A DNA stretch of 32,000 nt from Granulicella pectinivorans (GCF_900114625.1 NZ_FOZL01000001.1:2236272-2268271); one strand, 5' to 3'. Numbered from the stretch's first letter, positions 5,826 to 30,175 are shown. The notes: generated by a model not told the origin, from the letters alone. Numbers and translations: made by a program.

Positions 5826-7742
<1,917 letters not shown>

Positions 7743-15796: not shown

Positions 15797-15861
15797 CGTG
15801 CTTGATCGATACTACTTAGGATGCCGCGGAAGGGGAATCGAGAGTTTTGCACGCACGATTT

Positions 15862-15890
15862 TTGGACGGCTTCTTTTGAAGTGGTATGAT
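15862..15890 (+). promoter_or_regulatory. Candidate sigma-70 promoter for tRNA-Val
   Basis: TTGGAC (15862-15867), a 17-nt spacer, then TATGAT (15885-15890) preceded by a TGn extended -10. It lies ~55 nt upstream of the tRNA 5' end. Confidence 0.4.
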
Positions 15891-15949
15891 CACAACAGTC
15901 GGGCGGATCTCCGAAAAGATTTCCTGCGACGACGACCCAGTCCAGCATA

Positions 15950-16024
15950 GGGCGCATAACTCAGCGGTAGAGTGCCACCTTCACACGGTGGAAGTCGTAG
16001 GTTCGAATCCTGCTGTGCCCACCA
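15950..16024 (+). tRNA. tRNA-Val, anticodon CAC, with encoded CCA
   Basis: Hand-folded cloverleaf: acceptor GGGCGCA/TGTGCCC (one G-U), D stem ACTC/GAGT, anticodon stem CCACC/GGTGG with loop TTCACAC, 5-nt variable loop, T arm GTAGG-TTCGAAT-CCTGC, discriminator A, then CCA. Total 75 nt. Confidence 0.9.
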
Positions 16025-16090
16025 TCAAATCAACAACTTAGCGGTGAGAAACAGCCGATTCGGGGCCAAGCGAAGGTCCAGAAGGGGCCA

Positions 16091-17290
16091 CTAAGCTGAA
16101 ATGGCCAATTCTGCCTTTGCGGAATGCAGTCCCAACAGCGAACTGATGCGGCCTTGCGCTACCCGTTTGTCGTTGTCGATTGCCTGGGCATAGACACCCA
16201 AGGTCATCGCCGGAGATGCGTGACGCATGAGTTCCTGAGCCGTCTTGACGGTTTCCCCGTTGGCCAGCAACCACGTTGCGGTTGTTCTCCTGAACGTATG
16301 CCATCCGATACGCTTTAGTATTCCAGCTTCGCGCGCGGCGGGCTGAATCACTTTTTGCAGCACCGTGGATGGCCAGTAGGGTTTCGCGCCCAGGTCGTAC
16401 GGCGATGCGAAAACCCAATCTCCAGGTTTGATGTACGGGGTTTTCTCACGCCAGGACTGTAACGCATGGACGAGAGCAGGCTCCAGCGGAATGGGTCGCT
16501 TAGACGTTTCCGTCTTCGGCTCCCCTGCTATTTGATCGACCAAGGAGCGGCGAATTTGAATCTTGCCGTTCTCAAAGTCAACATCCTCCCACCTTAGACC
16601 GACAAGCTCGCCGCGCCGCAAACCGGTGACGGCTGCCACGACGACCATTGTTCGGGCGTAGTCAGGGAGCAGGCTGAGCAATCTGCCCACTTCCTCCGGC
16701 GTCAGGATATCCGGGGTCTCGCGACGCTTCGCGCTTTGCCTCACCTCTCGGATCGGATTGCGTGTAGCCCACCCGTATCGCAATGCGTGTTGATAGACGA
16801 CACTGAAGACAGCCTTCGTTTTGGACTTGGTGCCATCTGCTTTGTCCAGACCCTCAAGCCAAGCCTCTACACGGAACGCCTTCACGTCTCCAATGCGCTC
16901 GGCTCCCCATCTCGGCAAAATGTAGTCGTCAAGATGCTGACGGTACGTTTCCCGTGTCCTGGGCGTTTTGCCGCGTCCGTCGCAAAGCTCCTTCTCTACG
17001 TAATGCCCAACAACTTCGCGGATGGTCATTGGAATTGTGCTGACGGCTTCGGCGTTGATGTCCAAACGAAGCGCGTCAACAGCCTTACGCGCCGCCGTCT
17101 CCGTCTTGTACTCCTGCACGGTGCCGATGATGCGCTTACGCCTGACGCTCTGCCCATTACCGGATGGCTCGCGCCACCGGTACGTCCAGACATCCGGCCC
17201 GCTGCTTCTAGATTCGGTTGTCAAATAGCCGCGTTGGTATCGCTCTCTGGAGAGCTTGAGGGTTGGAAGTGATGTGAGAGCGTTTGTCAT
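16091..17290 (-). CDS. int: Tyrosine-type site-specific integrase (phage/P4-like family)
   Basis: 399 aa with a catalytic-domain pattern: ...TGLRRGELVGLRWEDVDF... (Arg box), ...GWHTFRRTTATWLLANG... (H-x-x-R), ...LMRHASPAMTLGVYAQ (His and the Tyr nucleophile). The stop is 66 nt from the tRNA. Confidence 0.9.
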   Translation of the reverse strand: MTNALTSLPTLKLSRERYQRGYLTTESRSSGPDVWTYRWREPSGNGQSVRRKRIIGTVQEYKTETAARKAVDALRLDINAEAVSTIPMTIREVVGHYVEKELCDGRGKTPRTRETYRQHLDDYILPRWGAERIGDVKAFRVEAWLEGLDKADGTKSKTKAVFSVVYQHALRYGWATRNPIREVRQSAKRRETPDILTPEEVGRLLSLLPDYARTMVVVAAVTGLRRGELVGLRWEDVDFENGKIQIRRSLVDQIAGEPKTETSKRPIPLEPALVHALQSWREKTPYIKPGDWVFASPYDLGAKPYWPSTVLQKVIQPAAREAGILKRIGWHTFRRTTATWLLANGETVKTAQELMRHASPAMTLGVYAQAIDNDKRVAQGRISSLLGLHSAKAELAISA

Positions 17291-17523
17291 GCTGCCTTCT
17301 CCTGTTCGGTTGGGGCAGTACGACCTGCGTTATCAGTGTATCCATTGCGCGATTCCAGCCAAGTCCTAATCTTGGACGGCAGGAAGACAACGCGGCGGGC
17401 GCTGAGGCGTACACAGGGGATTTTGCCTTCGCGTGCCCATTTTCGGATGGTCTCTGGGTGGAGGGGAAGGATGCCTGATAATTCCTCGGCTGTCAGGGGT
17501 GCTTCGATTGTGGGATTGTCCAC
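17287..17523 (-). CDS. xis: Excisionase / AlpA-type helix-turn-helix DNA-binding protein
   Basis: 78 aa with a GTG start. LTAEELSGILPLHPETIRKWAREGKIPCVRLSARRVVFLPSKIRTWLE matches the Xis/AlpA wHTH layout. Its stop overlaps the int start by 4 nt. Confidence 0.7.
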   Translation of the reverse strand: MDNPTIEAPLTAEELSGILPLHPETIRKWAREGKIPCVRLSARRVVFLPSKIRTWLESRNGYTDNAGRTAPTEQEKAA

Positions 17524-17702
17524 GTTTCAACCTATTGCGCCTGGGCCTTACAGGCTTGCCGCTCGATTGCTTTACGGTGTGCAGTCCATCCTTCTTGGCT
17601 TGCATCATCGCTGGAGAGCAACGAGGTCAGGAGCAGACTGCCCCCGACGGAAGTAGTAAACTGAGCTATTGATCTTAGTTCCAATGCTTGAGGTCGTCCC
17701 AT

Positions 17703-18344
17703 ATGAACAACGCAACGTGCTACGCCTGCGACCAGCCCGCAACCACCAAGGAACACACGCCTCCATATTCGTTCTTCCCTGAAGGGCAGCGGCTGAACCT
17801 TATCACTGTGCCTTCATGTGAGGCGCATAACAATGCGAACTCCAAAGATGTCGAGTATGCGCGAAACGTCATCACCACCATGTTCGGCACGAACGATGTA
17901 GGTCAGCAGCACTTTGCCGATAAAGCACTGCGCTCGTTTGATCGTTCGCCCAAGCTGCTGAATATGACTTTCGCGGATATACGTCCCGTCACGCTGCACG
18001 GTCAGACTGTCGGTGCATTCACCATGCAGACGGACCGCATCGAGGCCGTAATGAATGCTTGCGTCACGGCTCTGCACTTCCGCGATACGAACGAACGCAT
18101 TCCTAACTGGGAAGTCATTCTCCCCAACCTGTCATTCCAGGGCGACACGACGGAAGCTCAGGCGGCGGGTTGGTCTGGATTCCTCTCGATGTTTGGGCAG
18201 GTTCAGTACAACGTAAAGCCAACTGATTCGCCTGATGTGTTTCAGTACGCCATGGCTCAGATTCTAGGAGGCTGGATTTACAACCTGTGTTTCTACAAGG
18301 CGTTCACGGTCTTTGCATTCGCACCGTCTGTATCTCCTGAGTAG
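17703..18344 (+). CDS. HNH (HNH_5-like) endonuclease-domain protein with a ~160-aa unknown C-terminal domain
   Basis: ATG 17703 (GAGG 9 nt upstream) is preferred over the TTG at 17688. The motif spacing is C6-x2-C9 ... E17-H18 ... N32 ... C39-x2-H42-N43 (MNNATCYACDQPATTKEHTPPYSFFPEGQRLNLITVPSCEAHNN). It is the only + strand gene between xis and the long minus-strand operon, and G+C is visibly lower here. Confidence 0.65.
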   Translation: MNNATCYACDQPATTKEHTPPYSFFPEGQRLNLITVPSCEAHNNANSKDVEYARNVITTMFGTNDVGQQHFADKALRSFDRSPKLLNMTFADIRPVTLHGQTVGAFTMQTDRIEAVMNACVTALHFRDTNERIPNWEVILPNLSFQGDTTEAQAAGWSGFLSMFGQVQYNVKPTDSPDVFQYAMAQILGGWIYNLCFYKAFTVFAFAPSVSPE

Positions 18345-18389
18345 AAAGAGAAAAGGCCCCCGTCCAGGCGGTGAGCCTAAGACGGGGCA
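18345..18389 (-). terminator. Terminator of the long minus-strand operon
   Basis: On the minus strand, GCCCCGTC..(inner AGGC/GCCT stem)..GACGGGGG is followed by CCTTTTCTCTTTCT. It lies between the convergent stops at 18344 and 18466. Confidence 0.5.
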
Positions 18390-18465
18390 TGACTTCACTT
18401 GGTCGTTTCGCAGGTACAGAGCGTACTCGATACGGGAAAGCGAATTACAACAATCTGCATAAGCC

Positions 18466-20319
18466 CTACTCCTCCGGCTCTTCGAGCGCCGGAGACAGCG
18501 GAGCAGCCTGAACATTCTTCCCCGCTTGTTTCCACAACGTCAGCGCCGTATGCCCTGCCTTCGGATTGAACAGCAGCTTATCCGCGATGGCAGATACCGG
18601 AGCCTTCGCAAGTTCGCCTGTATGGAAAGGCAACTTGCCCACCCATTCGGCCAGCCCGCTACCGGTCTCTGGGGTGGCAAGAGCGCCCAACACGTCGTTG
18701 TAATTTTTCAGGCCATCAGATCCGAGCAGCTTCGCGAACGCTCCGGCACCAAACTTGTTGTCGAAGTACGCGGGGAGCTTATTCAGAGCCGTACGGTTGA
18801 TAGAAGCCGTTTCCGCGCCGAAGCTACTGCCGTCTCCGGCACCCTGCAACATCGGGCGTATCCGATTCGCGAGCCACTGATAACGAATTCCCTGGGAGTA
18901 GGTGCGGTTCGCTGCATCCAGTTCTCCAGGCTTCACGACATCGGCGTGCTTATTGAGGAAGGCATCCATCTCGCGCTGGTACTCCGGCAGGTTCGCCTTT
19001 GCAGTAGCCTTATCCGTCTGGCTCGATACGCGGCTCTTGAGGGTGCTCTTCGCGTCGGTGATCTGGTCCTGCAACTCGGTGAAGAGCTTAGGCCGTGGTG
19101 GGACATCTGGAGTCGGGAGCGGCTTATCATCCGCTCCGTAAAGGGTGGGCTGTTTTTCCGCATCCCCGTACTTCTTGTCCCAGGCGGATACCTCTGGCTC
19201 GGCTGCGTCGTCCAGGATGCTATAGGTGTGGGATGCCTCTTTCTTGAGCAGACTCGCGATGTCATCGACAGAGGTCAGCGAAGAGGGTATTCCTGCGGTC
19301 GCCGGGGGCGGGTTCTCCCCACGGACTTTCCGAAGTTCCTTCACGGCATCCAAGGCAGACTGCACGAAGTTCGATTGCGCGGCCTTTCGGGCCGCTGGCG
19401 CTACGACATCATTCACGAAACCCTTCGCGCCCTGCTCAGTCGCGACGGATGACGCCAAGCGGGATGATACGGACTGGGTGGGCAGTTGCGGATTGTTGGA
19501 CGCGACCGGCACATCCTCTCCCGCGATCTTTGCGGAGGACGGCTTGGCGGTGTCTACAGCGCCCTCAGCGGCTTCGCCAAGCGAACTGATAGCCTTACCT
19601 ACCCCGAACGTCAGGAGCGGCCCCAGGATGTCACCGGCGACGGCCCGGTAGTTCTGCGCGTGCAGGTCTTCATCCAGGTTCGATCCAATCTGACGAATAG
19701 CGGGACCCATGAGGGGAATGACCCCGGCAGCATGGGAGTCAAGCGTCCCGGCAAGATCGCCAACGACACCGGATGCGCTGCCCTTGGCAGCGTCGGCCTG
19801 CACGCGGTCCTTGAGGTCGTTGTAGGATTTTGCAAGTCCTTTCACGCTACCCCCGGCTGCACGATCCGCTTTGTATGCGGCAGCGACCTCGTGAACGGGT
19901 TGCATGATGATCGCCTTCGCAGCTTGGACTATAGGATGGTCAGCGGTGAAGGCCTGACCGGTGATGATGTCGGTCGCCAGACTGGTAGCTGCCTTCCAGT
20001 CACCGGCCTTCGCGGTCTCGATCATCTGGTGGTACAAGTCGACGGGGCGCTGCACGGCGTACTTCGCGGACTGCGTTCCGAGGTCTACGATGCCCTTGAG
20101 GCCGGACGTTTCATAGGCGCGGTTTATAAGACCATGCTGCTCGGGCTGAGAGACGGGAGCAGAGTCAAAGACCATGCCGCCGTCGGGTGCCGCGCTAGGT
20201 GATGGCGAAGGCTTGGCTGGTGCAGACGATACCGGGGTTGGAGACGATACAGGAGACGAGTCGAAGACCATTCCTTGTCCGGCTTGCTGGTCCATGTCAG
20301 GTTGATTTGTGTCGAGCAT
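18466..20319 (-). CDS. Large hypothetical protein (617 aa), last gene of the island operon
   Basis: A long ORF with normal coding composition. Its start is coupled to the upstream stop (TAATG at 20317-20321). The N-terminus carries two copies of GMVFDS(S/A)PVS(S/Q)P separated by a Pro/Ser/Ala linker. I recognise no family. Confidence 0.8.
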   Translation of the reverse strand: MLDTNQPDMDQQAGQGMVFDSSPVSSPTPVSSAPAKPSPSPSAAPDGGMVFDSAPVSQPEQHGLINRAYETSGLKGIVDLGTQSAKYAVQRPVDLYHQMIETAKAGDWKAATSLATDIITGQAFTADHPIVQAAKAIIMQPVHEVAAAYKADRAAGGSVKGLAKSYNDLKDRVQADAAKGSASGVVGDLAGTLDSHAAGVIPLMGPAIRQIGSNLDEDLHAQNYRAVAGDILGPLLTFGVGKAISSLGEAAEGAVDTAKPSSAKIAGEDVPVASNNPQLPTQSVSSRLASSVATEQGAKGFVNDVVAPAARKAAQSNFVQSALDAVKELRKVRGENPPPATAGIPSSLTSVDDIASLLKKEASHTYSILDDAAEPEVSAWDKKYGDAEKQPTLYGADDKPLPTPDVPPRPKLFTELQDQITDAKSTLKSRVSSQTDKATAKANLPEYQREMDAFLNKHADVVKPGELDAANRTYSQGIRYQWLANRIRPMLQGAGDGSSFGAETASINRTALNKLPAYFDNKFGAGAFAKLLGSDGLKNYNDVLGALATPETGSGLAEWVGKLPFHTGELAKAPVSAIADKLLFNPKAGHTALTLWKQAGKNVQAAPLSPALEEPEE

Positions 20320-22469
20320 TAGAACTTCACCACTTTCCCATCTGCCGTGCGGTAGCCGAGGATAACGCCGGTCTTCGGATCACGTCCAGGCGTTGCGCCT
20401 ACAGGCACAACACGATCAGGTTGCCCGCTTCCTTGCTGAGGCTGAGACTGGAGACTCGACGCGTTCTGCTGTTGCTGTCTGAAGCTCGCCACGGTCGTAA
20501 GCTGATCTTCATTGGCGTAACGGCCTGCAACATCCTTCAGGCTATCCATCGCGCCCGCGAATTGGTCATTATTCATGCCAGGGAAGATCAGGCTGCCGGA
20601 CTTCTTGAGAATCTCGCTTGAGAATCGGCCTGTGTGCATTTTGGTCACTGCCGACTGTAAAAGGCTCACATTGTCGAGCATCTTCTGGGCCGCCTCGGTG
20701 CCGATGCCGAACGGTGCGAATGCCTTCGCAGAGTTCCCTGACAGAGGGCCGATGAGTCCGGGATTTCTCGCAATCTGTGCCTGAAGATCAGAGCTGATCG
20801 CGAGCACCTGACGGGCCGTGTCTGCGGTCTGTCGCTCCTGGGCAGTAGGTTTGTAGAGCGCTTGCTGATTCTGCGGAACGACGTTCCCACGCGGGTCTAC
20901 CAGCATGGAGTCAGGTGCGTTCTGTAACGTCAGCTTCTCCCCGCTGATCGGGTTGACGCCGGTCTTCATCATTGCCTCTCGGTCAGCGCCGGTCGCAATG
21001 GCATGGGCGCGGGCTTCCGCAGTCGCTTTGGTTATGCTTTCACTTTGCGAGATACGGACGAAGTTGGATGCCGCGCTGAGCTGATCCTTTGAGAATTTCT
21101 GGGGCGCGGCTAAGACGGCCTGGGCCTTCGCCTCGGAGTCGATGATGCTGAACTGCTCGGCACTCTTCTGGTTGGCCGCGAGCTGATCGTGTGCCGCCTC
21201 TAGAACTGACCACCCACCGAACACGGACGCAACGGCGTCAACGTATTTGGCGTCAGGGTTCGGCTGTATCTGACCGGTCTTCGGATCACGCTTCGCTTGG
21301 CCCATCGCCTGAAGTGCAGCGAAGGGGTCTTGGAGATTGGCCGCGTCATGCGAGACGTACGTCTGAAAGCGCTGCATCGCGGTATTCACACCGGGCTTCG
21401 AGAAGTCGATGGACTGAGGAACCTTCGATGCGTACTGGGTACCATCGAGCACGTTACTTAGATCGTGAAGACGCTGAGCTGCCAAATAGTGCGAGGCAAG
21501 CTGCTCATTCGCGTTCACCTTCATCCGCAGCGGGATCGTGAGACCTCCACCGACTTTGGTTCCCTTTGGAAAGCCAGGGACGCCGCCGTCTGCGTAGCGG
21601 TTCCAATCGTCCTGAGTGAGTGCGACCGGAGCGCCGGGGTCCTTGATGATGAGATGAGTTGCCTCCCACCGTTTCGAGCCGTCGGGGTTCGTGATCTCAA
21701 CGCGACCGGCAACGGGACCAAGCTGATCGGTCGGCGATAGCTTCCCGGTCTTCAATGAATCAAGCAACTCCGCTTGGGTCATCGGCGTACCACCGTTGTC
21801 TAGGAGGTCTGGGCTAACGTCCAGAACGCCCGAAGCCCTGTTAATGTCGGTGAGCTTATCGAGCGCGTCCGCACCCCTTGCCTCGGCCTCGCTGGTATTC
21901 AAAATCCCGCGAGAATTGGCTTCGTAGATGGACGCGCGTCTGGCGAGCTGCTGGGACTGGTTTTGAAAATCTTGCTGGGCCTGTTGTTCCTGCTTCTGCT
22001 GCGCTTGCTGTTGCGCCTGCGATACCTGCTGATAACCAGCGGCGGCGGCACGACCCGTAGCTCCGGGGCCGGTGACGGCGAGACCGCCGAGAGCACCCGT
22101 GACAGCCTCCATCGCAATCGCGAGGCCGATGTCGCGGCTGGAAAGGGGGACTTTCGTGCGCGTGGTTGCGCCGGTTGTAGCGTCGATGCTCGTTGTAAAG
22201 CGAGGACCGCCAGCTAGGGTTTCGGCAACAGAGCGAAGAACGCTCGCCTTTTGTATTGCAGGATGCGCTTGGGCCGCAGGCACAGCGGCGGCATTGCTGA
22301 CCACCGCTGCATTGTCCTGTTCGTTTGCGGGCTGAGGCTGGGTAGGCTGCTGCACCGCAACAGTTGCGACAGACTGGTCTTGGGTAGTCTGCTGAGGCTG
22401 CGTATTATCGTCGCCTGTGTCGGGGACGCTGGAGACCGGCTGCTGGTCGTCGGGTGTATCGAATGTCAT
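20319..22469 (-). CDS. Large hypothetical protein (716 aa), Gln-rich
   Basis: I prefer ATG 22469 (AGGAAA upstream; MTFDTPDDQQPVSSVP...). The 51 codons upstream in ORF 20319-22622 are Arg/Pro/Ser-rich and span hairpins. It has a disordered Q/T/P-rich N-terminus, a Gly/Ala-rich hydrophobic stretch (IGLAIAMEAVTGALGGLAVTG) and a poly-Q coil (QAQQQAQQKQEQQAQQDFQNQSQQ). I recognise no family. Confidence 0.8.
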   Translation of the reverse strand: MTFDTPDDQQPVSSVPDTGDDNTQPQQTTQDQSVATVAVQQPTQPQPANEQDNAAVVSNAAAVPAAQAHPAIQKASVLRSVAETLAGGPRFTTSIDATTGATTRTKVPLSSRDIGLAIAMEAVTGALGGLAVTGPGATGRAAAAGYQQVSQAQQQAQQKQEQQAQQDFQNQSQQLARRASIYEANSRGILNTSEAEARGADALDKLTDINRASGVLDVSPDLLDNGGTPMTQAELLDSLKTGKLSPTDQLGPVAGRVEITNPDGSKRWEATHLIIKDPGAPVALTQDDWNRYADGGVPGFPKGTKVGGGLTIPLRMKVNANEQLASHYLAAQRLHDLSNVLDGTQYASKVPQSIDFSKPGVNTAMQRFQTYVSHDAANLQDPFAALQAMGQAKRDPKTGQIQPNPDAKYVDAVASVFGGWSVLEAAHDQLAANQKSAEQFSIIDSEAKAQAVLAAPQKFSKDQLSAASNFVRISQSESITKATAEARAHAIATGADREAMMKTGVNPISGEKLTLQNAPDSMLVDPRGNVVPQNQQALYKPTAQERQTADTARQVLAISSDLQAQIARNPGLIGPLSGNSAKAFAPFGIGTEAAQKMLDNVSLLQSAVTKMHTGRFSSEILKKSGSLIFPGMNNDQFAGAMDSLKDVAGRYANEDQLTTVASFRQQQQNASSLQSQPQQGSGQPDRVVPVGATPGRDPKTGVILGYRTADGKVVKF

Positions 22470-22661
22470 AGTTTCCTGAAGGAGTGGGGACCGCCTTGGA
22501 TGGCTTCGCGGGCCTCTGCCCAGCGGTCCCCTTTCGTCGGCAGACGAAGGGCAGAATCGAATTTTGATGCGGTCCCGCCGGTAGAGGAGAAGGCCGGAGC
22601 AGTCGGCATGGCGGGACCGCAAAGCGGCGCGGAAGAAGAAGGAAGACCGCGCCGAATTGGG

Positions 22662-23705
22662 TTATCGTGTATCGGACATCGCGGTGAATAACTCAGCGAC
22701 CGTCGGAGCAATTGAGAAGGTCCGTCGGTAATCTTCGGAAGACATGCGGTCAACCTCCCAATTTGAGAAGTCGCGCATCTCGCCGGTGAGTTGATCGCGG
22801 CCTCGATAGACCTTCGGGCCTGATGGCGTAGTGGCGTTTGCCCGTTCTGGTGGGACGGCGAGGTTCACAGGCTCGGGCCGCTCTGCTGGCGGCTGAAGGG
22901 CTGTTTTTTGCTTCAACAACCCAAGGTCACGAAGGCGTACGAATGCCGCACGGATCGTTTCAACGTCGGCAATGAGCACGCCGTTCCTGCGGAGATACCC
23001 CAGAATGACATCGGCATTTTCTAAGGTTCGATAGGCCGCGTATTCAGGCTCACTCGCGAACTGCGCGGCTGCCTTTGCCGTGAACGCCTCGGCGTCCTTC
23101 GTCGGCATGGAGGCCGCACGCATGGCGTAGCTGACCACGAGCTTAGGGTCTGCATCCGCTTGAATCCAGTCAGCCCAGTACGCCTTCTGTTTCTCGCCAC
23201 GTTCGTGTAGCTCTGCTTCTCGCTCGGCCTGCTCTTGAGCGGCTTTGCGTTCTGCTTCGCGTCGTGGACGTTCGGCCTCTCTCTGGGCAGCTTCCTCAGC
23301 TTCACGACGCTCGCGGGCCGCGATGACTTCACGGGCGGTCATCGGGCGGGGTGATGGTGTAGGGGCGTACTTTGTGGGACGCTCCCAACCATCGGTTTCA
23401 GCATCCATGCGTGCGGCTGACGCCTGAAGTTGGGCAGCCTCAAGATCAGCTCGACGCTGGGCGGCGATGCTCTCGGATTCGTTGAGGCGTTGACGTTGCT
23501 CTGTCAGTTTGTTGTGGGTGGACGACATGCACTTGGCCGCGCCGGACATAAGGCGGTCGTGGCTTTCCGTCGTCGAACTGCCGCACGCACACGTCACCTC
23601 GTAGCGAGGCCGTGGATGTCGGGCAACCATGTCGCCAACCTTCAGCGTTCCTACGGTGCGACCCTCAAGATTGATGAGGCCGGGCATTACGCGTGTCGTG
23701 GACAT
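22662..23705 (-). CDS. Hypothetical protein (347 aa) with an N-terminal Cys-cluster (phage-like L.G..vG.L.V...C.CG...C) and an E/R/A-rich coiled coil
   Basis: The ATG at 23705 has GGAGAA 9 nt upstream. An alternative ATG at 23687 would give a TAATG junction with the upstream gene. Residues include ...INLEGRTVGTLKVGDMV...YEVTCACGSSTTESHDRLMSGAAKC..., followed by REAEEAAQREAERPRREAERKAAQEQAEREAE. Confidence 0.7.
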   Translation of the reverse strand: MSTTRVMPGLINLEGRTVGTLKVGDMVARHPRPRYEVTCACGSSTTESHDRLMSGAAKCMSSTHNKLTEQRQRLNESESIAAQRRADLEAAQLQASAARMDAETDGWERPTKYAPTPSPRPMTAREVIAARERREAEEAAQREAERPRREAERKAAQEQAEREAELHERGEKQKAYWADWIQADADPKLVVSYAMRAASMPTKDAEAFTAKAAAQFASEPEYAAYRTLENADVILGYLRRNGVLIADVETIRAAFVRLRDLGLLKQKTALQPPAERPEPVNLAVPPERANATTPSGPKVYRGRDQLTGEMRDFSNWEVDRMSSEDYRRTFSIAPTVAELFTAMSDTR

Positions 23706-23989
23706 AAGTCAGTTCTCCAATGTTTCCCGTCCTGGATTGCAGCCGTAAGCGTGTGCCGAGTCGCAATGAACTCGTCCAGAAGGGTCTTCGGGTCTTCGAT
23801 TGGAAAGCCTGGGCCGTTGTCGTCGCGGTGGTAAGCTCTCGCAATCTCAGCACATCTTCCTTCCACATCGTCAATGAGGAAGGTCGCTCCCTTCGGCTGC
23901 TCGATGAACGTCGCGATGTGAACGGCTGGTCCATACACGTAACGCATGATGGCGCAGACACCCTGATTCCGCGTGCGGTAAAGGCTCAT
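23687..23989 (-). CDS. Hypothetical protein (100 aa)
   Basis: It is linked to both neighbouring genes (ATGA overlap at 23986-23989; its stop overlaps the next gene). I see no motif. Confidence 0.55.
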   Translation of the reverse strand: MSLYRTRNQGVCAIMRYVYGPAVHIATFIEQPKGATFLIDDVEGRCAEIARAYHRDDNGPGFPIEDPKTLLDEFIATRHTLTAAIQDGKHWRTDLCPRHA

Positions 23990-24396
23990 GGTTTCCTCCG
24001 GTGGGCATAGCGATCACGCAGCCAGTAGCGGGAGGGTGCTAAATTTCGGGCGATGTATAAGCGACCGCAGCGAAGAAAAAGCTCTTTCTTCGGAGCAGCG
24101 ACAACCGGTTCGCCAAACGCCAGTTGAAACCAATTTCGTTGCAGGTCCGGTCTACCCTCAAGAGCTTTCTCGGTCGCCTTCTCAATGTCCACGGCGTAGC
24201 CTACGAGGTCGAAGGTGAGCTTCTGGGGTTGGTTGGTTGGTTCGGGGTCGATTTGACTCGCGATGATCGGCGAGAGGCTTCTTATGCGGACGTACTCGCA
24301 AATGACTGCCATGCACGCGTTTTCATAACGCTCAAGCAGGTCACGTTTTGACATGGACGCAGGACGCGCCGGGTCATTGGGTTGTAATGCTTCCAC
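23986..24396 (-). CDS. Hypothetical protein (~136 aa from GTG 24396, or 122 aa from ATG 24354)
   Basis: GTG 24396 is preceded by AGGAGA. The further 83 codons upstream in the ORF-track model (to 24645) are Arg-rich and look untranslated. Confidence 0.55.
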   Translation of the reverse strand: MEALQPNDPARPASMSKRDLLERYENACMAVICEYVRIRSLSPIIASQIDPEPTNQPQKLTFDLVGYAVDIEKATEKALEGRPDLQRNWFQLAFGEPVVAAPKKELFLRCGRLYIARNLAPSRYWLRDRYAHRRKP

Positions 24397-24671
24397 TTCT
24401 CTCCTGATTGGATTTTTGCTGCTACAGCCCAGGGAACACAACGGGCGCGATGCTGCGACCGTCTGATGTGGTCGATTCGTGGCATTGCGAGCGTGGATGA
24501 TATGGAACTGCCCCGGCACGACGACGGAAACGTACCGTGTACGTTCGGCCTTTTGAAGCTCTGTCGTTGGTCGTCGGATACCGATAAGAAGGCCGTAATC
24601 AGGGCGGCGGGTGATTCCCGCTCTGTGCCCCGATTGATGCCTCACACATACATAGAGCGGCGACGATTTTT

Positions 24672-25679
24672 CTAGGCTGCCAAGAGCGTTTGTTCACAGG
24701 TCTCCGCGTCGTAAACCTCGTCCGCACGAAAGGGACCGGCACGGCGTAACTCGCGTTCAAGATCAGCGTAGGTCCAGGGCAGGTCGCGGATGACAATCGG
24801 ATTGTGATATTGCTCAAGGTCGATGGCCCCTGACCACATTCTCACCTTGCCTTCATCCCCAAGCCCCTCTTTGTACGCGTCGTTTGCGTGCTCATCGCCG
24901 GGACCAAGGACGATGGGACGTGGTGAGCATTTTCCCTGCTCTCGCAAATATGCAAGCTCAGATTCGGTTTCTTCGATTCCGTCAGTTGATGCGGGTTTTG
25001 GGGCGTCGCCCTTCTTTAGAAGCCGGATTCGTTCCGTCTTCCAGGCGCGTGCCCGCCAGTACGCCCTCCAATGGAGTTCGGCTCTAAGGCCTTCCGTATC
25101 TGCAAACTTTGCCGCATGGTCCGCTACATACATCCACATCTCTGAGAACAACTGGTCTTCCACATCGTCAATGCAGCCTTCCAGGTCACGACAGTCCACC
25201 AGTACGCGCCGGATACCGGACCTGACTGCTGCGGCATGAACCTTGATCCAAGTTGCCAATGCTTCGATGCCCTCAGTTTCTCGGCGGGCAATAACCTGCG
25301 TCCACACCTGGAGTGCGTCGGCATCATTCACGCAGCCTGCGAACTCCGGCAGCCGAAGGAACAGCATGGTGTCAAGAACATCGCGTTCACGTCCACTCAG
25401 TATCTGACGCAGTTTTACGACGAGTTGAGCTTGCCGCGATGCCCAGGCAACAGCCTCAGCTTGGAACAGCCTGGCGTATGCAACACCTTTCGGATAGCGA
25501 TGGTCCTGAAGGCGCTCGAAGAGCTGTCCAACGATGCGCTGCACATCGAACACTGTTGTTCCAGATACTCCAAGAATCGCTTCCTTCAGCGCGGCTTGTA
25601 CCTTCTCCGCATGGAACCTTTCTCGCGCCCGCTTGAGGTCTTTGTCGTATTTCTTCTTTTTCTTGATTTCGTCCGTCAT
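24672..25679 (-). CDS. Hypothetical protein (335 aa)
   Basis: A long ORF with coding-like composition, starting 16 nt after the upstream stop. The segment DDVEDQLFSEMWMYVADHAAKF...LHWRAYWRARAWKTERIR faintly resembles sigma-70 region 2, but I cannot support that call. Confidence 0.7.
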   Translation of the reverse strand: MTDEIKKKKKYDKDLKRARERFHAEKVQAALKEAILGVSGTTVFDVQRIVGQLFERLQDHRYPKGVAYARLFQAEAVAWASRQAQLVVKLRQILSGRERDVLDTMLFLRLPEFAGCVNDADALQVWTQVIARRETEGIEALATWIKVHAAAVRSGIRRVLVDCRDLEGCIDDVEDQLFSEMWMYVADHAAKFADTEGLRAELHWRAYWRARAWKTERIRLLKKGDAPKPASTDGIEETESELAYLREQGKCSPRPIVLGPGDEHANDAYKEGLGDEGKVRMWSGAIDLEQYHNPIVIRDLPWTYADLERELRRAGPFRADEVYDAETCEQTLLAA

Positions 25680-25695
25680 TCCGTCCCATTCTGGT

Positions 25696-26136
25696 CTACT
25701 GCCGCGTAGCGTTATGCTCAGCGAGGATCGCGTTTACATCGCTGATGGTCGTCTCGGTCGTAACGTTCCCTGAGCGGAGACCCCCTTCGGCTATGTCGCG
25801 ATAGTGGTTTGGTGTGGATGCATAGGTGGCTTCCAGATGCGAGGTCACCCCCTCGGAGAGGGGTTGTTCGTGGTTCATGTTTCCCTTTCTGAGAGCAGGT
25901 GCTCTCATCTCTTCGTCAAGCAGGTTGAACAGCAGTTTTGTTACATACCGATACGCTCGGTCCGAATCTGTACCTGTACGGTGGAACTTCGCGGCGGCCT
26001 TCATGATCGCTTTCTCAAGAAGCTCGTCATCGAATCTGAGACACCATCTGATGAACTGTGCCAGCTCCGGCGGCGGGACATCTGAAACCGCTTTCCAAAG
26101 AGCTTGAAACTTTGTAGCTCTATCCGATACAAGCAT
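25696..26136 (-). CDS. Hypothetical protein (146 aa)
   Basis: The ATG at 26136 is preceded by AGGAGA, and the gene overlaps the upstream stop by 17 nt. The ORF-track start at 26292 would overlap the Rep-like gene by 173 nt. Confidence 0.6.
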   Translation of the reverse strand: MLVSDRATKFQALWKAVSDVPPPELAQFIRWCLRFDDELLEKAIMKAAAKFHRTGTDSDRAYRYVTKLLFNLLDEEMRAPALRKGNMNHEQPLSEGVTSHLEATYASTPNHYRDIAEGGLRSGNVTTETTISDVNAILAEHNATRQ

Positions 26137-27022
26137 TGGTGATCTCCTGTAGTCCGTGCTGAGTGCCTGCGCCCATGTAAGCCCGAATCGCGGTGAGATC
26201 GAACTCCGGCTCCTTCCAAAGCTGAAAGCTCCGGAGAGCACATAGCTTTGCTGAGTCACCTGAGCGGGAACACGCGAAACATTTCCAGGCATCGGCTGTG
26301 TCGGTCGCGGTTACTCTGAAGGTTCGGTCGGGGTTTAGACATAACGGGCAAGTGAGCCGCATTCCGCTGTCTGCGGTGAATCCGTGGACATAATCGAGCT
26401 GAGGCTTCAGCGCGAGACGATATCGAGTCAGCACATCCAGTTCGTTGACCCGGTTGCGGAAGAACCAGCCGAGATCGTTGAGGGATGCACCTGACGCTAC
26501 GTCGAGCAGTTGGATCAATGTTCCGTGAGTCCATCGGGAACCTGCTTCCCTCAGCGACTTCGTTTTGAGGATGCCTTTATTCGCGAGTTCTGCGAGGGCT
26601 GCCCCCACTGCTTGACGGCTGACTCGCGCCACTTTCGCCAGCTTATCTCGACGACCCTCCCACGAGAAATACGGTGCTCGCTGGTGCTTAGCCGAGGCAT
26701 ACAACGCAATGCAGACTCTCAGCTCGGCCAACGACAATTCATCCCACGGTAAGTGTGTCGGAATCTCCGCAAGCTTGTTCGCGGGGATGGCGGTAGCTTC
26801 GGGAGTGCCTTTGTCATCCAGGGATACAAGCTCCCTCTGGGCCAACTCCGCTAGTGTCTCGCGCCGCCTGCGGTGGGTGTACGGTGTTCCGCGTTGCAGG
26901 CTATTCAGCGCGAATGCGCCGCCATACAGACGCAGCAACTCCAGCACCGAAGCACGGGAATGCAAGTGCAAGATATCCGTGCTCAACTTCAAGTAGGGGA
27001 TGCCTAGTTCAAAGAGTTTCAT
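26120..27022 (-). CDS. Replication-initiator-like protein: winged-helix HTH plus a C-terminal CHC2-type (primase-like) zinc finger. It has no catalytic primase or helicase domain.
   Basis: The wHTH-like segment is LAKVARVSRQAVGAALAELANKGIL. The C-terminal CPLCLNPDRTFRVTATDTADAWKCFACSRSGDSAKL parallels the DnaG/P4 zf-CHC2 pattern CPFH..ktPSf.v......y.CFgCg..GD. It is the first gene of the operon, downstream of the iterons. Confidence 0.7.
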   Translation of the reverse strand: MKLFELGIPYLKLSTDILHLHSRASVLELLRLYGGAFALNSLQRGTPYTHRRRRETLAELAQRELVSLDDKGTPEATAIPANKLAEIPTHLPWDELSLAELRVCIALYASAKHQRAPYFSWEGRRDKLAKVARVSRQAVGAALAELANKGILKTKSLREAGSRWTHGTLIQLLDVASGASLNDLGWFFRNRVNELDVLTRYRLALKPQLDYVHGFTADSGMRLTCPLCLNPDRTFRVTATDTADAWKCFACSRSGDSAKLCALRSFQLWKEPEFDLTAIRAYMGAGTQHGLQEITNACIG

Positions 27023-27189
27023 GCGTGCATCATTCTTTCTTCCTTATTGCAATGCCACCCATGAGCATTCACCCAAGGGAGATGCCTACCATCCACAATG
27101 GAGACGACCGTCAGGACACAGGGGCATACACCATCTGCCTCTAGCTGTGTATCTCCGTTTCCGGTGCAGTGTGCCCTTATACCGAAATA

Positions 27190-27300
27190 GAACTTTCAAT
27201 GTCAGAAAGTTCACCGGACGCGCGTCACCATTGGAGATTCGCATGAATATCAATGTCAGCGTTTCGCAAGAAAACGAGCATCAATGTCAGATAGTTCGCA
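27190..27300. repeat. Three direct ~19-bp iterons, the first embedded in a 23-bp palindrome
   Basis: TCAATGTCAGAAAGTTCAC (27196-27214), TCAATGTCAGCGTTTCGC (27250-27267) and TCAATGTCAGATAGTTCGC (27281-27299). GAACTTTC-N7-GAAAGTTC spans 27190-27212. An A/T-rich stretch follows at ~27300-27420. Confidence 0.65.
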
Positions 27301-27435
27301 AACCCCAATAAAGACGAGGCTTTTGTAGACCTAGATTGTGCACTAAAAATGGTGCAACTCAAGCTCCTAAACTACTGGTAAACATTCACCAGCAACTCAT
27401 ACTCTTTTGATTGGGTGCTCTGATGGAGCTTGCTT

Positions 27436-27459
27436 CAAAAACCGCCCGAAGGCGGCGGG
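27436..27459 (-). terminator. Rho-independent terminator of the 99-aa/168-aa cassette
   Basis: The minus strand reads GCCGCC-TTCG-GGCGG-TTTTTGAAG: a short all-G/C stem, a UUCG tetraloop and a U5 tail. Confidence 0.5.
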
Positions 27460-27609
27460 TCGGGGAACCTTGTCAGGCTCAACCTATCCCATGGCTACAA
27501 CTACATCGTATCACGATTTCCTGAATAAGTCAAGCATTATCTACTACTTGCAAGACTTCCTGGTGAACACTTCCCAGCTTCTCGACGCCGTACCAATCAC
27601 GTCGAGCAA

Positions 27610-28116
27610 CTATAGTGCCCACACGTCTTTGAGTTCGAGCGGCGGGCGCTCTACTGGCAGCTTGCCGTCGTAGGTCCATTTCGTCGCGGTCGGAAACGAC
27701 ACCTCTGCAAGCAAGTTCTGTGCGCCGTAGTTATTCGCCCTCCACTTCGAGATGTGTCCGTAATTCGCTAGGACCCACTGGCAAGCCGCCAGCCGTTCCA
27801 GGCGATGCGCGGACTCATCGACTACGACCGCGAGGACAGAGCGGAGGCGGTGAACTTTTTGAACTTCCGATATCGCGTCGGCTAGGTTCTCGCCCAATGC
27901 GGCCTTCGCGAAGCTGATCCCAAGCACAAGGGACTTCACCGGACCATCTGACCACGGAGTCATCCTCGCCAAGACTTCCTGGTCATCGTTCCTTGGTTCC
28001 GGCACACCCTCGACGGCCATTTCGATTAGGTGGTCGGCGGCGTCCCGGCGCTTCTGCATCGGCACTTCGTCGTTTTCAACGACGCTGTGAAGTTGATCTA
28101 ACTCGGGATTATGCAC
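27610..28116 (-). CDS. Hypothetical protein (168 aa)
   Basis: The ORF overlaps the upstream gene by 8 nt and has acidic, helical composition. I see no motif. Confidence 0.6.
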   Translation of the reverse strand: MHNPELDQLHSVVENDEVPMQKRRDAADHLIEMAVEGVPEPRNDDQEVLARMTPWSDGPVKSLVLGISFAKAALGENLADAISEVQKVHRLRSVLAVVVDESAHRLERLAACQWVLANYGHISKWRANNYGAQNLLAEVSFPTATKWTYDGKLPVERPPLELKDVWAL

Positions 28117-28408
28117 TCGGTATTGTTCCTTTCATTGCGGTGGGTCTCACCGACGCGAGGAAGGCTCTTGCGCGTTCCTCAGCACTCGGTGCTGGGGCCA
28201 TTGGCGGAATCACGCTGGCTTCTGCCTCAGCTTTCCGTGCTGCTGCCCGCTCCACGGCGATTGTCACCCGCTGTTCTGCATCCAGATGGGCTAGGAGAAT
28301 GTCAGTCATCCTCATCGCTGCTTGGAGTCTTACGCGTTCACTTCTTGAGTTCGCCAGTTCGCGGAGCACCTTCATAGGTGCATCGAAACGGCGCGGCAAT
28401 CTGCTCAT
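28109..28408 (-). CDS. Hypothetical protein (99 aa), helical, Arg/Ala-rich
   Basis: The ATG at 28408 has AGAGGA 8 nt upstream. It is coupled to the 168-aa gene. Confidence 0.55.
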   Translation of the reverse strand: MSRLPRRFDAPMKVLRELANSRSERVRLQAAMRMTDILLAHLDAEQRVTIAVERAAARKAEAEASVIPPMAPAPSAEERARAFLASVRPTAMKGTIPSA

Positions 28409-28451
28409 CGGTTGGTCCTCTACTATCTATGAGCGACGACGAAAAATGGCC

Positions 28452-28678
28452 GTTAGCGGGCCGCTTACTTACACCGTAGCGGGCTGGTAGCGGGAGGTTG
28501 GGACTCCTAGCCCCAGTGTCGGACGGACCGAGGGATGGGAATCATGGCCCCTTTTTGAACGGGGGGTGGGGGAGGTTTGATTCGCTGGCCGCGTCAGCTT
28601 CAGCCAAGTGACCGTCGGGGCCGGAGACTCCCTGCCGGGCGGCCTCGGGAAGCATGCTTCAGGGACTCCTAGCCCCCA
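28452..28678. repeat. Cluster of short direct repeats in a 390-bp GC-rich non-coding block
   Basis: TAGCGGG occurs three times (28454-60, 28477-83, 28488-94; the last two form the tandem GTAGCGGGCTG/GTAGCGGGAGG). GGGACTCCTAGCCCC occurs twice (28500-28514, 28662-28676). GTCGGAC occurs twice (28518, 28728). A 12-bp palindrome GAAGCATGCTTC lies at 28649-28660. Confidence 0.7.
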
Positions 28679-28798
28679 GGGACGTTGGGGGCGCACGGCA
28701 GCCGCACCTTCCCATCCTCGCGGAAGGCGTCGGACCAACGAGCAGCTACCCCAGCAAACACAGGTGCTCGTGCAACAGCAGCTAAGAATTTCGTACTT

Positions 28799-28930
28799 CT
28801 ATTTGGTGACTACGCCGACAACCGCACCACAGCTTGTGCAGTAGATCAGCAGACGAGCAACGCCCGCCTGGGTGCTCGTTGAATAGCTGAAAGATGTGCC
28901 TTCGCATCGCGGACAGTTAGGGTTTGCCAT
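28799..28930 (-). CDS. Unlisted 43-aa zinc-ribbon micro-protein
   Basis: My own translation is MANPNCPRCEGTSFSYSTSTQAGVARLLIYCTSCGAVVGVVTK*, with a CPxC...CxxC pair and AGGA ~10 nt upstream of ATG 28930. It is below the ORF-track length cut-off and is divergent from the recombinase gene. Confidence 0.45.
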   Translation of the reverse strand: MANPNCPRCEGTSFSYSTSTQAGVARLLIYCTSCGAVVGVVTK

Positions 28931-28978
28931 AGTGGGTGAATCCTACACCCATGGACCGTTCTCTGAGGAGTTTCGACC

Positions 28979-29068
28979 GTCAGAAAAGTACACTTTGTGA
29001 CACGATGCCGTGGTGCCTGTAAGTGCTTGATTTTCGTTTGTCAAAAAGGTCCTATTCAGTTATTGACA
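28979..29068. promoter_or_regulatory. Candidate res-like serine-recombinase binding sites
   Basis: Two imperfect palindromes share TGTCA half-sites: GTCAGAAA-N7-TTTGTGAC (28979-29001) and TGTCAAAAA-N12-TTATTGACA (29039-29068). The second overlaps the -35 of the recombinase promoter. A degenerate tandem copy follows (AAAGGTCCTA / AAAGGTCTAG, GTTATTGACA / GTTTATTGTAC). Confidence 0.4.
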
Positions 29069-29091
29069 CGCAATCTATAAAGGTCTAGAGT
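29063..29091 (+). promoter_or_regulatory. Candidate sigma-70 promoter of the serine recombinase gene
   Basis: TTGACA (29063-29068), a 17-nt spacer, then TAGAGT (29086-29091). GGAGG follows at 29101-29105 and ATG at 29113. Confidence 0.45.
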
Positions 29092-29112
29092 TTATTGTAC
29101 GGAGGCAGGACG

Positions 29113-29679
29113 ATGACAGCAGCAAAAGGCGGGCAGAGGGTTGGCTATATCAGAGTGAGCAGCGCGGACCAGAACACGGCACGGCAGCTAGATGGCGTTG
29201 ACTTAGACGAGCGGTTCGAGGATAAAGCGTCCGGCGCAAGCACTAACCGGCCCCAGCTCCAGGCTGCACTCAGGCATGTCCGCAAGGGTGATGTGCTGGT
29301 TGTCCACTCAATGGACCGCCTTGCCCGTTCCCTCGCCGATCTGCTGGCGCTCGTCAAAGAACTGACCGGGCGTGGCGTGACTGTAGAGTTCGTGAAGGAG
29401 GCCCAGACGTTCACCGGCGACGACACTCCCATCGCGAAGATGATGCTCGGCGTGATGGGGAGTGCTGCTGAGTTCGAGCGCGACATGATTCGACAGCGCC
29501 AGCGTGAGGGAATCACAGCGGCGAAGGCACGTGGCAAGCACTTGGGCCGCGCCGCGATACTGAAACCCGCCCAAGTGAAGGAGTTACGGAACCGTGTGGC
29601 TGCCGGTGAGGATAAGGCCACCATCGCCCAAGCGTTCGGCATCAGTCGCGCTAGCGTCTACAACTACGCGGCGTCCTGA
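29113..29679 (+). CDS. Small serine recombinase (resolvase/invertase family)
   Basis: The ATG at 29113 has GGAGG 7 nt upstream. The catalytic region VGYIRVSSADQNTARQ carries the Ser nucleophile, followed by DVLVVHSMDRLARS, the E-helix AEFERDMIRQRQREGI, and a C-terminal HTH TIAQAFGISRASVYNY. Confidence 0.9.
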   Translation: MTAAKGGQRVGYIRVSSADQNTARQLDGVDLDERFEDKASGASTNRPQLQAALRHVRKGDVLVVHSMDRLARSLADLLALVKELTGRGVTVEFVKEAQTFTGDDTPIAKMMLGVMGSAAEFERDMIRQRQREGITAAKARGKHLGRAAILKPAQVKELRNRVAAGEDKATIAQAFGISRASVYNYAAS

Positions 29680-29706
29680 TCTACTTCCCCACCTCCCCCC
29701 ACATCT

Positions 29707-29731
29707 GCCCCGGCTCCGGCTGGGGCTTTTT
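29707..29731 (+). terminator. Rho-independent terminator after the recombinase gene
   Basis: GCCCCGGC-TCCG-GCTGGGGC is an 8-bp stem with one G-U pair, followed by TTTTT. Confidence 0.7.
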
Positions 29732-30102: not shown

Positions 30103-30175
30103 ATCGCGATTCTACGTTGTAAGCCTGCTCCAGACGGCATAGGCTGGATTTCACATCACACCTTCTGGAGAGACT

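Follow-up and report, generated by a model that had tools for sequence, protein, structure and literature searches.

Homologues of podovirus structural-module genes in an integrated element of Granulicella pectinivorans: a possible new family of satellite-like islands in Acidobacteriota

Background

Phage satellites of the described families (P4-like, PICI/SaPI, cf-PICI, PLE and PICMI elements) are islands of 10-20 kb at tRNA genes that encode an integrase and an AlpA-type helix-turn-helix (HTH) protein, have an apparent replication module of their own, lack a complete set of morphogenesis genes and carry genes related to virion genes of a potential helper phage (PMC10085698, PMC10803314). We analyzed a stretch of 32,000 nucleotides from Granulicella pectinivorans (GCF_900114625.1 NZ_FOZL01000001.1:2236272-2268271; the whole stretch is called "the window" below) that contains an integrated element resembling these satellites in each of these respects. 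As in the P4 and PICI hotspots, variable defence-type cargo lies beside int in the element and its relatives (Thoeris, Abi_alpha, TIR-like). The middle of the element is a block of eight minus-strand genes, g1 to g8, whose two largest products, g7 and g8, are by sequence comparison homologues of adjacent podovirus genes. The best reading, which we hold about as strongly as we doubt it, is a new family of helper-dependent, satellite-like islands with an ejection-protein block plus the g6 gene as its hallmark.

The element differs from each of the known families. From the P4-like set (psu, delta, sid, alpA, epsilon, alpha and int; PMC10085698) it has only int and the AlpA-type HTH gene, and it has no P-loop. 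It gives no primase-replicase, TerS (small terminase subunit) or Ppi/Cpm match in Pfam or PHROGs, which sets it apart from PICI/SaPI elements; in the PICI definition other structural genes are typically absent, and tail and holin genes are "forbidden" in the model (PMC10085698), whereas the element carries other phage structural-module genes. None of the genes for an own HK97 capsid, portal, protease, connector and terminase that mark cf-PICIs was detected, and the element does not contain the defining PLE gene set given in PMC10085698.

Podovirus ejection proteins have lengths of ~200, 431-982 and 609-1337 amino acids (aa) and are encoded in a small operon at the distal end of the structural module. 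They are helical with membrane-active segments, one of them sometimes has a transglycosylase domain, and they are so divergent that size and synteny normally identify them (PMC8954989).

The 2023 satellite census does not mention Acidobacteriota (PMC10085698). Searches of full-text literature returned no paper on satellites, helper phages or integrases in this phylum. Acidobacteriota are among the most abundant soil bacteria and, to our knowledge, hardly any work exists on their mobile elements or on their phages, first isolated in 2025.

Homology of g7 and g8 to podovirus genes

The two genes on which the comparison turns are:

18466-20319, minus strand: g8, 617 aa, podovirus gp25-type homologue, candidate gp16-like ejection protein
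20319-22469, minus strand: g7, 716 aa, podovirus gp24-type homologue, candidate gp15-like ejection protein

Together they make up 1333 of ~2700 aa, half of the coding length of the operon. Judged by sequence similarity and gene order, g7 and g8 are homologues of the adjacent genes gp24 and gp25 that close a podovirus structural module. The phage is Tunturi_3 (PP885686.1), an isolated 97.6-kb phage of virulent type, a podovirus by electron microscopy, that infects Tunturiibacter, a genus of the Acidobacteriaceae, to which Granulicella also belongs. Its genes are arranged in the order large terminase subunit (TerL), portal, major capsid protein, tail genes, gp23 (243 aa), gp24 (797 aa), gp25 (1070 aa) and endolysin. 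The g8 protein is 37% identical to Tunturi_3 gp25 over 647 aa (E 6.5e-114) and 43% identical over 600 aa to a 691-aa protein of the IMG/VR contig L016 (E 9e-151); g7 is 29% identical to gp24 over 464 aa (E 1e-14). Order and adjacency of the two genes are the same in phage and island, whereas the terminase, portal, capsid, tail and lysis genes of Tunturi_3 have no equivalent in the island, and both island proteins are shorter.

Eleven IMG/VR viral contigs (L014-L024, 21-99 kb) show the same arrangement. In each, a g7-like gene (754-958 aa), 31-52% identical to g7, is directly followed by the gp25-like gene (650-1054 aa) and preceded by ~135-aa, ~270-aa and tail-fibre-like genes. These contigs came from a profile-guided scan with the g7 family; IMG/VR scans with the single proteins g7, g8 and P0213, a relative bearing an SLT domain, found nothing. 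Neither megablast nor blastn of the element against the phage collection gave a match.

A preliminary description of this DNA had reported no virion gene in the block. By eye and in the family libraries that statement stands: g2-g8 have no significant match in Pfam, PHROGs, NCBIfam or PADLOC, and all eight products give only weak hints there, for g1, g2 and g6. It does not stand for g7 and g8, whose phage structural-module homologues are clear, and under profile-based searches the verdict that nothing was recognizable fails for half of the coding length. The description had offered two explanations. One, "extremely diverged structural or hijacking proteins", is borne out for the two largest products. 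The other was a new functional system as the main payload. A novel system of non-phage origin would suit g3-g6, to which no library or fold search assigns a function; it does not suit an operon half of whose coding length has homologues in phage structural modules, in which the unassigned genes lie between an initiator-like DNA-binding gene and the phage block, and in which g3 is not family-wide. We count it among the less likely explanations and think it highly improbable.

More than 130 full-length homologues of g7 were found at 40-69% identity; they are unnamed and have no Pfam domains, and the few from named organisms are from Acidobacteriota. A profile search of 1.84 billion representatives returned 831 clusters, many of which are 900-1060 aa long, resemble g7 only in the N-terminal ~350 positions and have the Pfam SLT lytic-transglycosylase domain (eight of ten long relatives tested). 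A hidden Markov model (HMM) of SLT built from relatives of Tunturi_3 gp24 was positive for four of eight phage versions and for none of the 60 members of alignment A1. The domain is absent from g7 and from Tunturi_3 gp24 according to both Pfam and this HMM. Tunturi_3 gp24 (L025 24270-26663) is deposited as "lytic tail fiber protein"; given that it has no transglycosylase domain, the annotation may come from SLT-bearing relatives. Sub-threshold PT-TG and RHS-repeat matches of the A1 members in Pfam, at C-terminal beta hairpins, were judged to be noise. A tblastn search of plasmids with g7 gave no match, and its profile found nothing useful among PDB sequences.

The AlphaFold2 model of g7 (mean predicted local distance difference test score, pLDDT, 82.6) is mostly helical, with a 65-residue disordered N-terminus, a conserved hairpin, a 62-residue helix and a helical body. 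Conservation is highest in a hydrophobic helix rich in Gly and Ala, with 60% identity to the phage versions. Foldseek found no match of the model below E 0.01 in PDB or BFVD. Weak Foldseek matches of g7 and g6, to pleolipovirus VP5, alpha-pore-forming toxins and pre-ejectosome entries, had TM-scores of ~0.1 and were rejected.

The island versions are shorter than the phage versions for both proteins (g7-like ~700-790 aa against 754-958; gp25-like 442-617 aa against 650-1070). In a neighbour-joining tree of the shared g7 region, the clade with the phage sequences takes in five of the 60 A1 sequences and leaves the other 55 outside; island context was verified for part of A1 and not for these five. 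Phage proteins are nearer to the g8 of the window than the gp25-like proteins of other islands are, which points to continuing exchange with phages. From these sequence relationships, g7 looks like an old acquisition and the gp25-like gene looks to have been exchanged with phages more recently.

The N-terminal disordered region of g8 (20170-20319) contains the motif GMVFDSxPVS twice. All gp25-like proteins examined (L001, L003, L009-L011, L014-L019, L021, L025) start with a disordered region that has a short motif in two copies, and the motif differs by lineage: PEALDMSTAQP is doubled in Tunturi_3 gp25 and DQYSTPxPQGAT in L019. In most island gp25-like versions [IV]x FD[SAG]P is shared even where similarity is otherwise undetectable, and the N-terminus of g7 (22446-22469) reads MTFDTP. 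The doubled motif looks like a co-evolving docking or capsid-targeting peptide.

Likely role in DNA ejection

The phage genes of the g7 and g8 type most likely encode ejection (internal virion) proteins, functional counterparts of T7 gp15 and gp16. A trio of small, medium and large genes stands at the distal end of the structural module, namely gp23, gp24 and gp25 in Tunturi_3 and their equivalents in L014-L024; the Tunturi_3 lengths of 243, 797 and 1070 aa match the published gp14/15/16 order (PMC8954989). The lengths of g7 (716 aa) and g8 (617 aa) fall within the gp15-like and gp16-like ranges. The phage homologues of g7 and g8 and a protein of ~250 aa form a cluster of three genes that closes the structural module of a short-tailed phage, and in this they resemble the ejection or internal virion proteins of T7 (gp14-gp15-gp16), P22 (gp7-gp20-gp16) and phiKMV. 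Helical structure, hydrophobic helices and disordered ends are further points of likeness. A possible one is the lytic transglycosylase that one member often has, a domain that is optional and phage-specific among ejection proteins. In the relatives of g7 and g8, unlike the known systems, the transglycosylase is in the middle protein and not in the last, g7 itself being without it, and g7 and g8 lie in a small island that lacks all other parts of a phage. The SLT-bearing versions match the PHROGs "lytic tail protein" and "internal virion protein with endolysin domain" (E 6e-21), through SLT only.

The island family and its hallmark gene g6

22662-23705, minus strand: g6, 347 aa, family hallmark with 26 homologues

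The 26 homologues of g6 are all unnamed proteins in which Pfam finds no domains; those few whose genome has a name are from Acidobacteria. The gene always lies upstream of a g7-like gene, from which at most two small genes separate it, and tblastn found no match to it in the phage collection. In the AlphaFold2 model (pLDDT 81) an N-terminal Cys-rich beta domain is followed by a charged helical hairpin of ~100 residues and small C-terminal domains; Foldseek gave no match to the model below E 0.01 in PDB. We rejected g6 as a counterpart of the phage gp23-like (gp14-like) protein, the hhalign probability being 0.2%.

The preliminary description had proposed a search for gene order and taxonomic spread. 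The order g6, g7, gp25-like gene is kept in at least 13 independent loci (L001-L012, L027, L030, L031, L033), and all related islands with a taxonomy are from Acidobacteriota, including all five matches in the species-level genome collection. An integrase gene, often beside a tRNA gene, is present wherever the contig reaches far enough, and a resolvase gene and a variable early region are frequent. Attachment (att) repeats derived from the tRNA lie 12.6 kb apart in L004 (tRNA-Pro) and 18.1 kb apart in L005 (tRNA-Ser); L006 adjoins tRNA-Pro and L007 adjoins tRNA-Ala. L001 and L003 also have gp22-like and gp23-like genes, arranged as in the phages and with products 43-56% identical to theirs, and L010 has a homologue of another phage tail-region protein. 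Metagenomic contigs of 10-12 kb were considered as circular free genomes and rejected as such, having no terminal repeats.

The family core comprises a tyrosine integrase, an AlpA-type excisionase, usually a serine resolvase, g6, and two to four genes from the end of a Tunturi_3-like structural module. To this we would add a variable replication or regulation module free of NTPases, putatively g1 with its upstream iterons and g2-g5 in the window.

These comparisons bear on whether the locus is a leftover of a decayed podovirus prophage, with the other open reading frames (ORFs) as remaining early genes. In such a remnant, g7 and g8 would be ordinary structural-module genes near an integrase at a tRNA, and one locus, L031, has apparent frameshifts in g6 and int. 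Decay does not fit well with the same compact architecture at different tRNAs with intact att repeats in 13 or more loci, with more than 130 full-length g7 clusters at 40-69% identity, or with the position of 55 of the 60 A1 members outside the phage clade (in the neighbour-joining tree, with island context verified for part of A1). Furthermore, g6 is absent from the phage collection, the window holds no detectable traces of neighbouring phage genes, and Tunturi_3-like phages, at 60-100 kb, have a quite different gene content. A prophage remnant is therefore one of the less likely explanations, and in our view quite unlikely. In L031, g6 and the integrase each align in two frames (5852-6894 and 9431-10596), which reflects either decay of this copy or a fault in the assembly.

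What lies between the gp25-like gene and xis/int varies from island to island: orf218 in the window, Thoeris ThsA/ThsB in L009 and an SDH-type protease/NfeD gene in L001, and a phage tail-protein homologue can also occupy this slot. In L011 a Laminin_G_3 protein gene follows the gp25-like gene; the Abi_alpha gene of L010 lies past the resolvase, at the opposite end of the locus. A ClpP-clan gene of the SDH_protease/NfeD type lies just after the gp25-like gene in L001 (8854-10098) and in L009 (16679-17314) and is absent from the window. Proteases of this clan are the prohead proteases of many phages, and the gene might therefore process the N-terminal motifs described above.

Cargo of this kind underlies the main rival to a helper-dependent satellite, which we consider unlikely. 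According to it, the element is a plasmid-like integrative island for defence or exclusion, in which g7 and g8 act as decoys, as dominant-negative ejection proteins or as an entry block against Tunturi_3-like podoviruses, and which spreads by other routes such as mobilization or generalized transduction. The defence-type genes (TIR-like here, Thoeris ThsA/ThsB and Abi_alpha in relatives), the island g7 versions without the catalytic SLT domain of several phage versions, and the failure to find a packaging determinant all agree with this, and an integrase, a resolvase and a replicon suffice for an integrative plasmid. In the family, however, the phage-derived block with g6 is the conserved core, whereas recognized defence genes vary; three or four co-linear phage genes persist in some islands, more than decoys need; and no relaxase or oriT-associated gene was found in Pfam or PHROGs. 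The two explanations also overlap, in that satellite interference is compatible with a defence role and the one does not exclude the other.

A proposed helper-dependent satellite: mechanism and evidence against it

The element has the integrase, excisionase and att sites of a satellite and no detected set of genes for building a particle. Searches of Pfam, PHROGs and NCBIfam gave no match to capsid, portal, terminase, tail or lysis genes, with g3-g6 left without assignment in these libraries. With none of these genes the element cannot build a particle. The same libraries gave no match to relaxase, coupling-protein or type IV secretion genes, nor is there an NTPase motif; an orphan oriT in the element is conceivable.

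Very improbably, and with less support than a helper-dependent satellite, the element could instead be an autonomous small virus or vesicle-forming element that makes its own particle from g3-g8, comparable to the plasmavirus-like and pleolipovirus-like enveloped viruses that have no packaging ATPase. Its size of 12-19 kb in the family, its unidirectional operon without an NTPase, the confident and unmatched folds of g6 and g7 and the unassigned proteins speak for this. Yet the only proteins that could be placed are accessory virion proteins of tailed phages, which need a portal, tail and capsid that the element does not encode. Strongly hydrophobic segments are missing from all eight products (over 19 residues the Kyte-Doolittle mean peaks at 1.78, in the Gly/Ala-rich helix of g7), IMG/VR contains no free genomes of the family, and the contigs are not circular.

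The mechanism that we think most likely is that of a phage satellite, in which the island would excise by means of Int and Xis when a related podovirus infects or is induced. It would then replicate as a circle with the helicase and polymerase of the host, with g1 acting on the iterons and the resolvase resolving multimers, and its DNA would be packaged in capsids made by the helper. The captured proteins would be loaded through their N-terminal docking motifs as shorter ejection proteins that replace those of the helper. Such a replacement could fit a smaller capsid or core, or could ensure that island DNA is delivered; helper progeny would probably be spoiled. A still more specific proposal, which we make tentatively and consider doubtful, is that no satellites were known before these islands in Acidobacteriota or for podovirus helpers of this kind, and that their piracy follows a strategy new to the literature. 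It would need neither capsid-remodelling nor terminase genes and would work through a down-sized ejectosome or internal core of their own (gp23/24/25-like proteins with N-terminal docking motifs specific to the islands) together with g6, whose fold is unmatched; the replacement of the core would set the delivered DNA or the capsid size and sabotage the helper.

Several observations weigh against a helper-dependent satellite with ejection proteins. We know of no helper phage for G. pectinivorans and of no observation of induction or packaging, nor of any described satellite family marked by ejection-protein genes. In the element we identified neither a pac or cos site nor TerS or a capsid-size factor, and the IMG/VR viral collection yielded no island-type locus. 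A replication role for g1 and g2 is weakly supported (E 7.5e-4 to 0.07). The ejection role is read from gene position, protein size and architecture and from a domain that only relatives have, and the annotation of gp24 as "lytic tail fiber protein" makes a lytic role at the tail tip possible. Profiles of g7 and of the gp23-like proteins gave hhalign probabilities of <2% against T7 gp14, gp15 and gp16, and in PDB and BFVD Foldseek gave no fold match of g7 to any solved ejection protein. Given that ejection proteins are normally recognized by size and synteny, a missing fold or sequence match is weak counter-evidence.

Borders and integration genes of the element

15950-16024, plus strand: tRNA-Val(CAC), integration target, predicted by ARAGORN
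16091-17290, minus strand: tyrosine integrase, 399 aa (Pfam Phage_integrase E 3e-26; PHROG 1 E 4e-65)
17287-17523, minus strand: excisionase / AlpA-type HTH_17 protein, 78 aa (Pfam HTH_17 E 1.6e-10, above the curated cut-off)

The element runs from the tRNA-Val gene to a copy of the 3' half of this tRNA and is ~18.6 kb long. The attL core, of at least 30 nt, lies inside the tRNA gene at 15981-16010. An identical sequence, TTCACACGGTGGAAGTCGTAGGTTCGAATC, is attR; it lies at ~34607-34636 in window numbering, ends the Logan contig SRR4235416_63 and puts the right border ~2.6 kb past the end of the window. This contig (L026), from a short-read assembly of the same strain, is 18,642 bp long and starts inside tRNA-Val at about position 15995 of the window. 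The tRNA 3'-half copy thus shows that the element extends beyond the window. Searches of the window for attR with 25-mers (up to 3 mismatches), 18-mers (up to 2 mismatches) and exact 11- to 16-mers found none because the site is outside it. The comparison with a phage satellite made in the preliminary description was apt, while the borders that it gave (16.0-27.4 kb) and the resulting size of 11.4 kb were wrong.

The short-read assembly breaks exactly at both att copies, leaving the island as its own contig of 18,642 bp. The repeat alone would explain such a break, and so would a mixed population of integrated and excised forms.

The integrase and excisionase genes of the preliminary description are real, as the library matches above confirm; the HTH_17 ORF overlaps the start of int by 4 nt. 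The GC content is 62% to the left of 15.9 kb, where there is a gene for an extracytoplasmic function (ECF) sigma factor, and 57% from tRNA-Val to the end of the window. The products of SAMN05421771_1845 to _1853 are annotated as hypothetical, and each is a singleton at 90% identity.

The eight-gene block and its signals

18356-18389, either strand: GC-rich hairpin, likely a bidirectional terminator between the convergent g8 and orf218, read directly as GCCCCCGTC...GACGGGGC
27442-27458, minus strand: terminator-like hairpin 3' of u168, weak, from a consensus scan whose sites are no more than shuffled sequences lead one to expect

ORF calling recovered all eight minus-strand ORFs at 18466-27022, as first described. 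Recomputed junctions agree with the tight ones reported earlier: -17 nt for g1-g2, +16 for g2-g3, -4 for g4-g5, -19 for g5-g6 and -1 for g7-g8 (TAATG). Two junctions are loose, namely g3-g4, at +275 nt (from a GTG start with a good ribosome-binding site) or +26 nt (for the longest ORF), and g6-g7, at +192 nt. A regular-expression scan of six frames from 13000 to 32000 found no Walker-A motif [AG]xxxxGK[ST], in agreement with the absence of a P-loop noted by eye. With two of the eight products placed and no ATPase or terminase found, most of the products are not assigned to standard structural or plasmid-maintenance families.

The terminator described at the end of the block is also present, the hairpin at 18356-18389 being followed by a T-rich run on the minus strand; the consensus terminator scan missed it. 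At the other end, the weak candidate terminator at 27442-27458 may set the unit of u99 and u168 apart from the eight genes. Between g6 and g7, the gap of 192 nt at 22470-22661 has no detectable remnants of gp22-like or gp23-like genes. At this position L010 and L011 have a small ORF of ~50 aa, and L001 and L003 have the gp22/gp23-like genes. The gap may contain an internal, perhaps late, promoter, and the eight genes therefore need not form a single transcript.

Genes g1 to g5 and the repeat array

23687-23989, minus strand: g5, 100 aa, tblastn matches at 40-80% identity in L005, L007, L009, L011, L030 and L031
23986-24396, minus strand: g4, 136 aa from a GTG start with an AGGAG ribosome-binding site (longest ORF to 24645)
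24672-25679, minus strand: g3, 335 aa, only in some islands, 40-42% identity in L010 and L033
25696-26136, minus strand: g2, 146 aa, homologues in L001, L009, L010 and L011
26120-27022, minus strand: g1, 300 aa, winged-helix and C4 zinc-ribbon DNA-binding protein, from its family profile
27196-27290, no strand assigned: three exact TCAATGTCAG repeats (starts 27196, 27250 and 27281), candidate iterons or operators for g1

The family profile of g1 matches a Crp-family winged HTH in PDB (E 7.5e-4, residues 90-154), and there are weak matches to an O-like initiator PHROG (E 0.0027) and to primase zinc fingers (E 0.015-0.9). Of the two motifs assigned to this protein in the preliminary description, the winged HTH is thus upheld and the CHC2 zinc finger is not: the ribbon reads CxxC...CxxC (CPLC...CFAC) and is weakly similar to primase-type zinc ribbons. 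No match to g1 was found in phages by tblastn, and PDB sequences searched with g1 yielded nothing of use. The g2 protein has a faint match to the lambda P-type helicase loaders (PHROG 109, E 0.07). The g3 gene, for which Pfam, PHROGs, PDB and the phage collection gave no match, is not conserved across the family, and g1 is likewise present in only some islands. The start of g4 was taken from the gene call on the Logan contig, and homologues occur in L001, L008, L009, L010 and L011.

The AT-rich region with candidate iterons that was first noted by eye is present. The three TCAATGTCAG repeats lie within 95 nt at spacings of 54 and 31 nt, in the intergenic region 27023-27609 (587 nt, 48% GC). 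With one mismatch allowed, the window contains five matches, the three exact ones included, where shuffled sequences have a mean of 1.6 and never five. In L011, whose g1 is 64% identical, CTCATTGAT repeats are found upstream of g1 at the same spacing of 31 nt, which makes the array a candidate conserved binding array. Taken with the repeats, g1 is a candidate replication initiator or regulator, weakly suggested by these motifs. Four tandem 11-nt units (TGCxCxxCAAC-like) in the early region of L010 (5531-5590) may be the iteron array of a different replication module.

The arrangement may be like that of lambda O/P modules and iteron plasmids, with a putative winged-HTH protein beside clustered direct repeats in an AT-rich region and, as in lambda O/P, a small protein after it, here g2 with its faint P-like match. 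It differs from lambda in that the repeats are upstream of the gene and not inside it, as they are in lambda O. All of these matches are below or near significance, and the origin is a candidate proposed from the DNA itself. The lack of an element-encoded helicase is consistent with recruitment of the host's helicase.

Cargo and the right arm

17688-18344, plus strand: orf218, cargo gene, 218 aa, in the variable slot between the gp25-like gene and xis/int
27610-28116, minus strand: u168, 39-42% identity in L005 and L033
28109-28408, minus strand: u99, 61-65% identity in L010 and L033
29113-29679, plus strand: serine recombinase (resolvase), divergent from the long operon (Pfam Resolvase E 1.3e-38)
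30910-31872, minus strand: TIR-like effector, 320 aa (PADLOC TIR effector E 1.2e-8)

The only plus-strand gene between xis and g8 is orf218. It has no match in Pfam or PADLOC, its exact sequence is absent from the protein collection, and it contains CxxC...HNN motifs, read as CYAC...PSCEAHNN, that are perhaps HNH-like. The u99, u168 and resolvase genes have the same relative positions in related islands; the resolvase is also found in L004, L005 (92% identical), L006, L009 and L010. The TIR-like protein matches Pfam Nuc_deoxyrib_tr below the cut-off (E 1e-4); its exact sequence gave no match in a look-up, probably owing to a different start in the record. Beyond the window, the right arm (L026 13166-15273) encodes a DUF5677 protein and a 409-aa protein, which together with the TIR-like effector are probably defence cargo.

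Implications

Hundreds of sequence variants of this island family are present in soil metagenomes. The g6 family and the SLT-less g7 type are two well-populated families with confident predicted structures and no detected fold match, and the isolated, cultivable pair of Tunturi_3 and Tunturiibacter is now linked to a testable satellite hypothesis. If the islands are helper-dependent satellites, such elements would extend to a new phylum and to podovirus helpers, and they would follow a new logic of hijacking in which ejection or internal-core proteins are supplied in place of capsid-size or packaging factors. They would also be a natural vehicle that moves defence systems (Thoeris, TIR, Abi) between soil bacteria.

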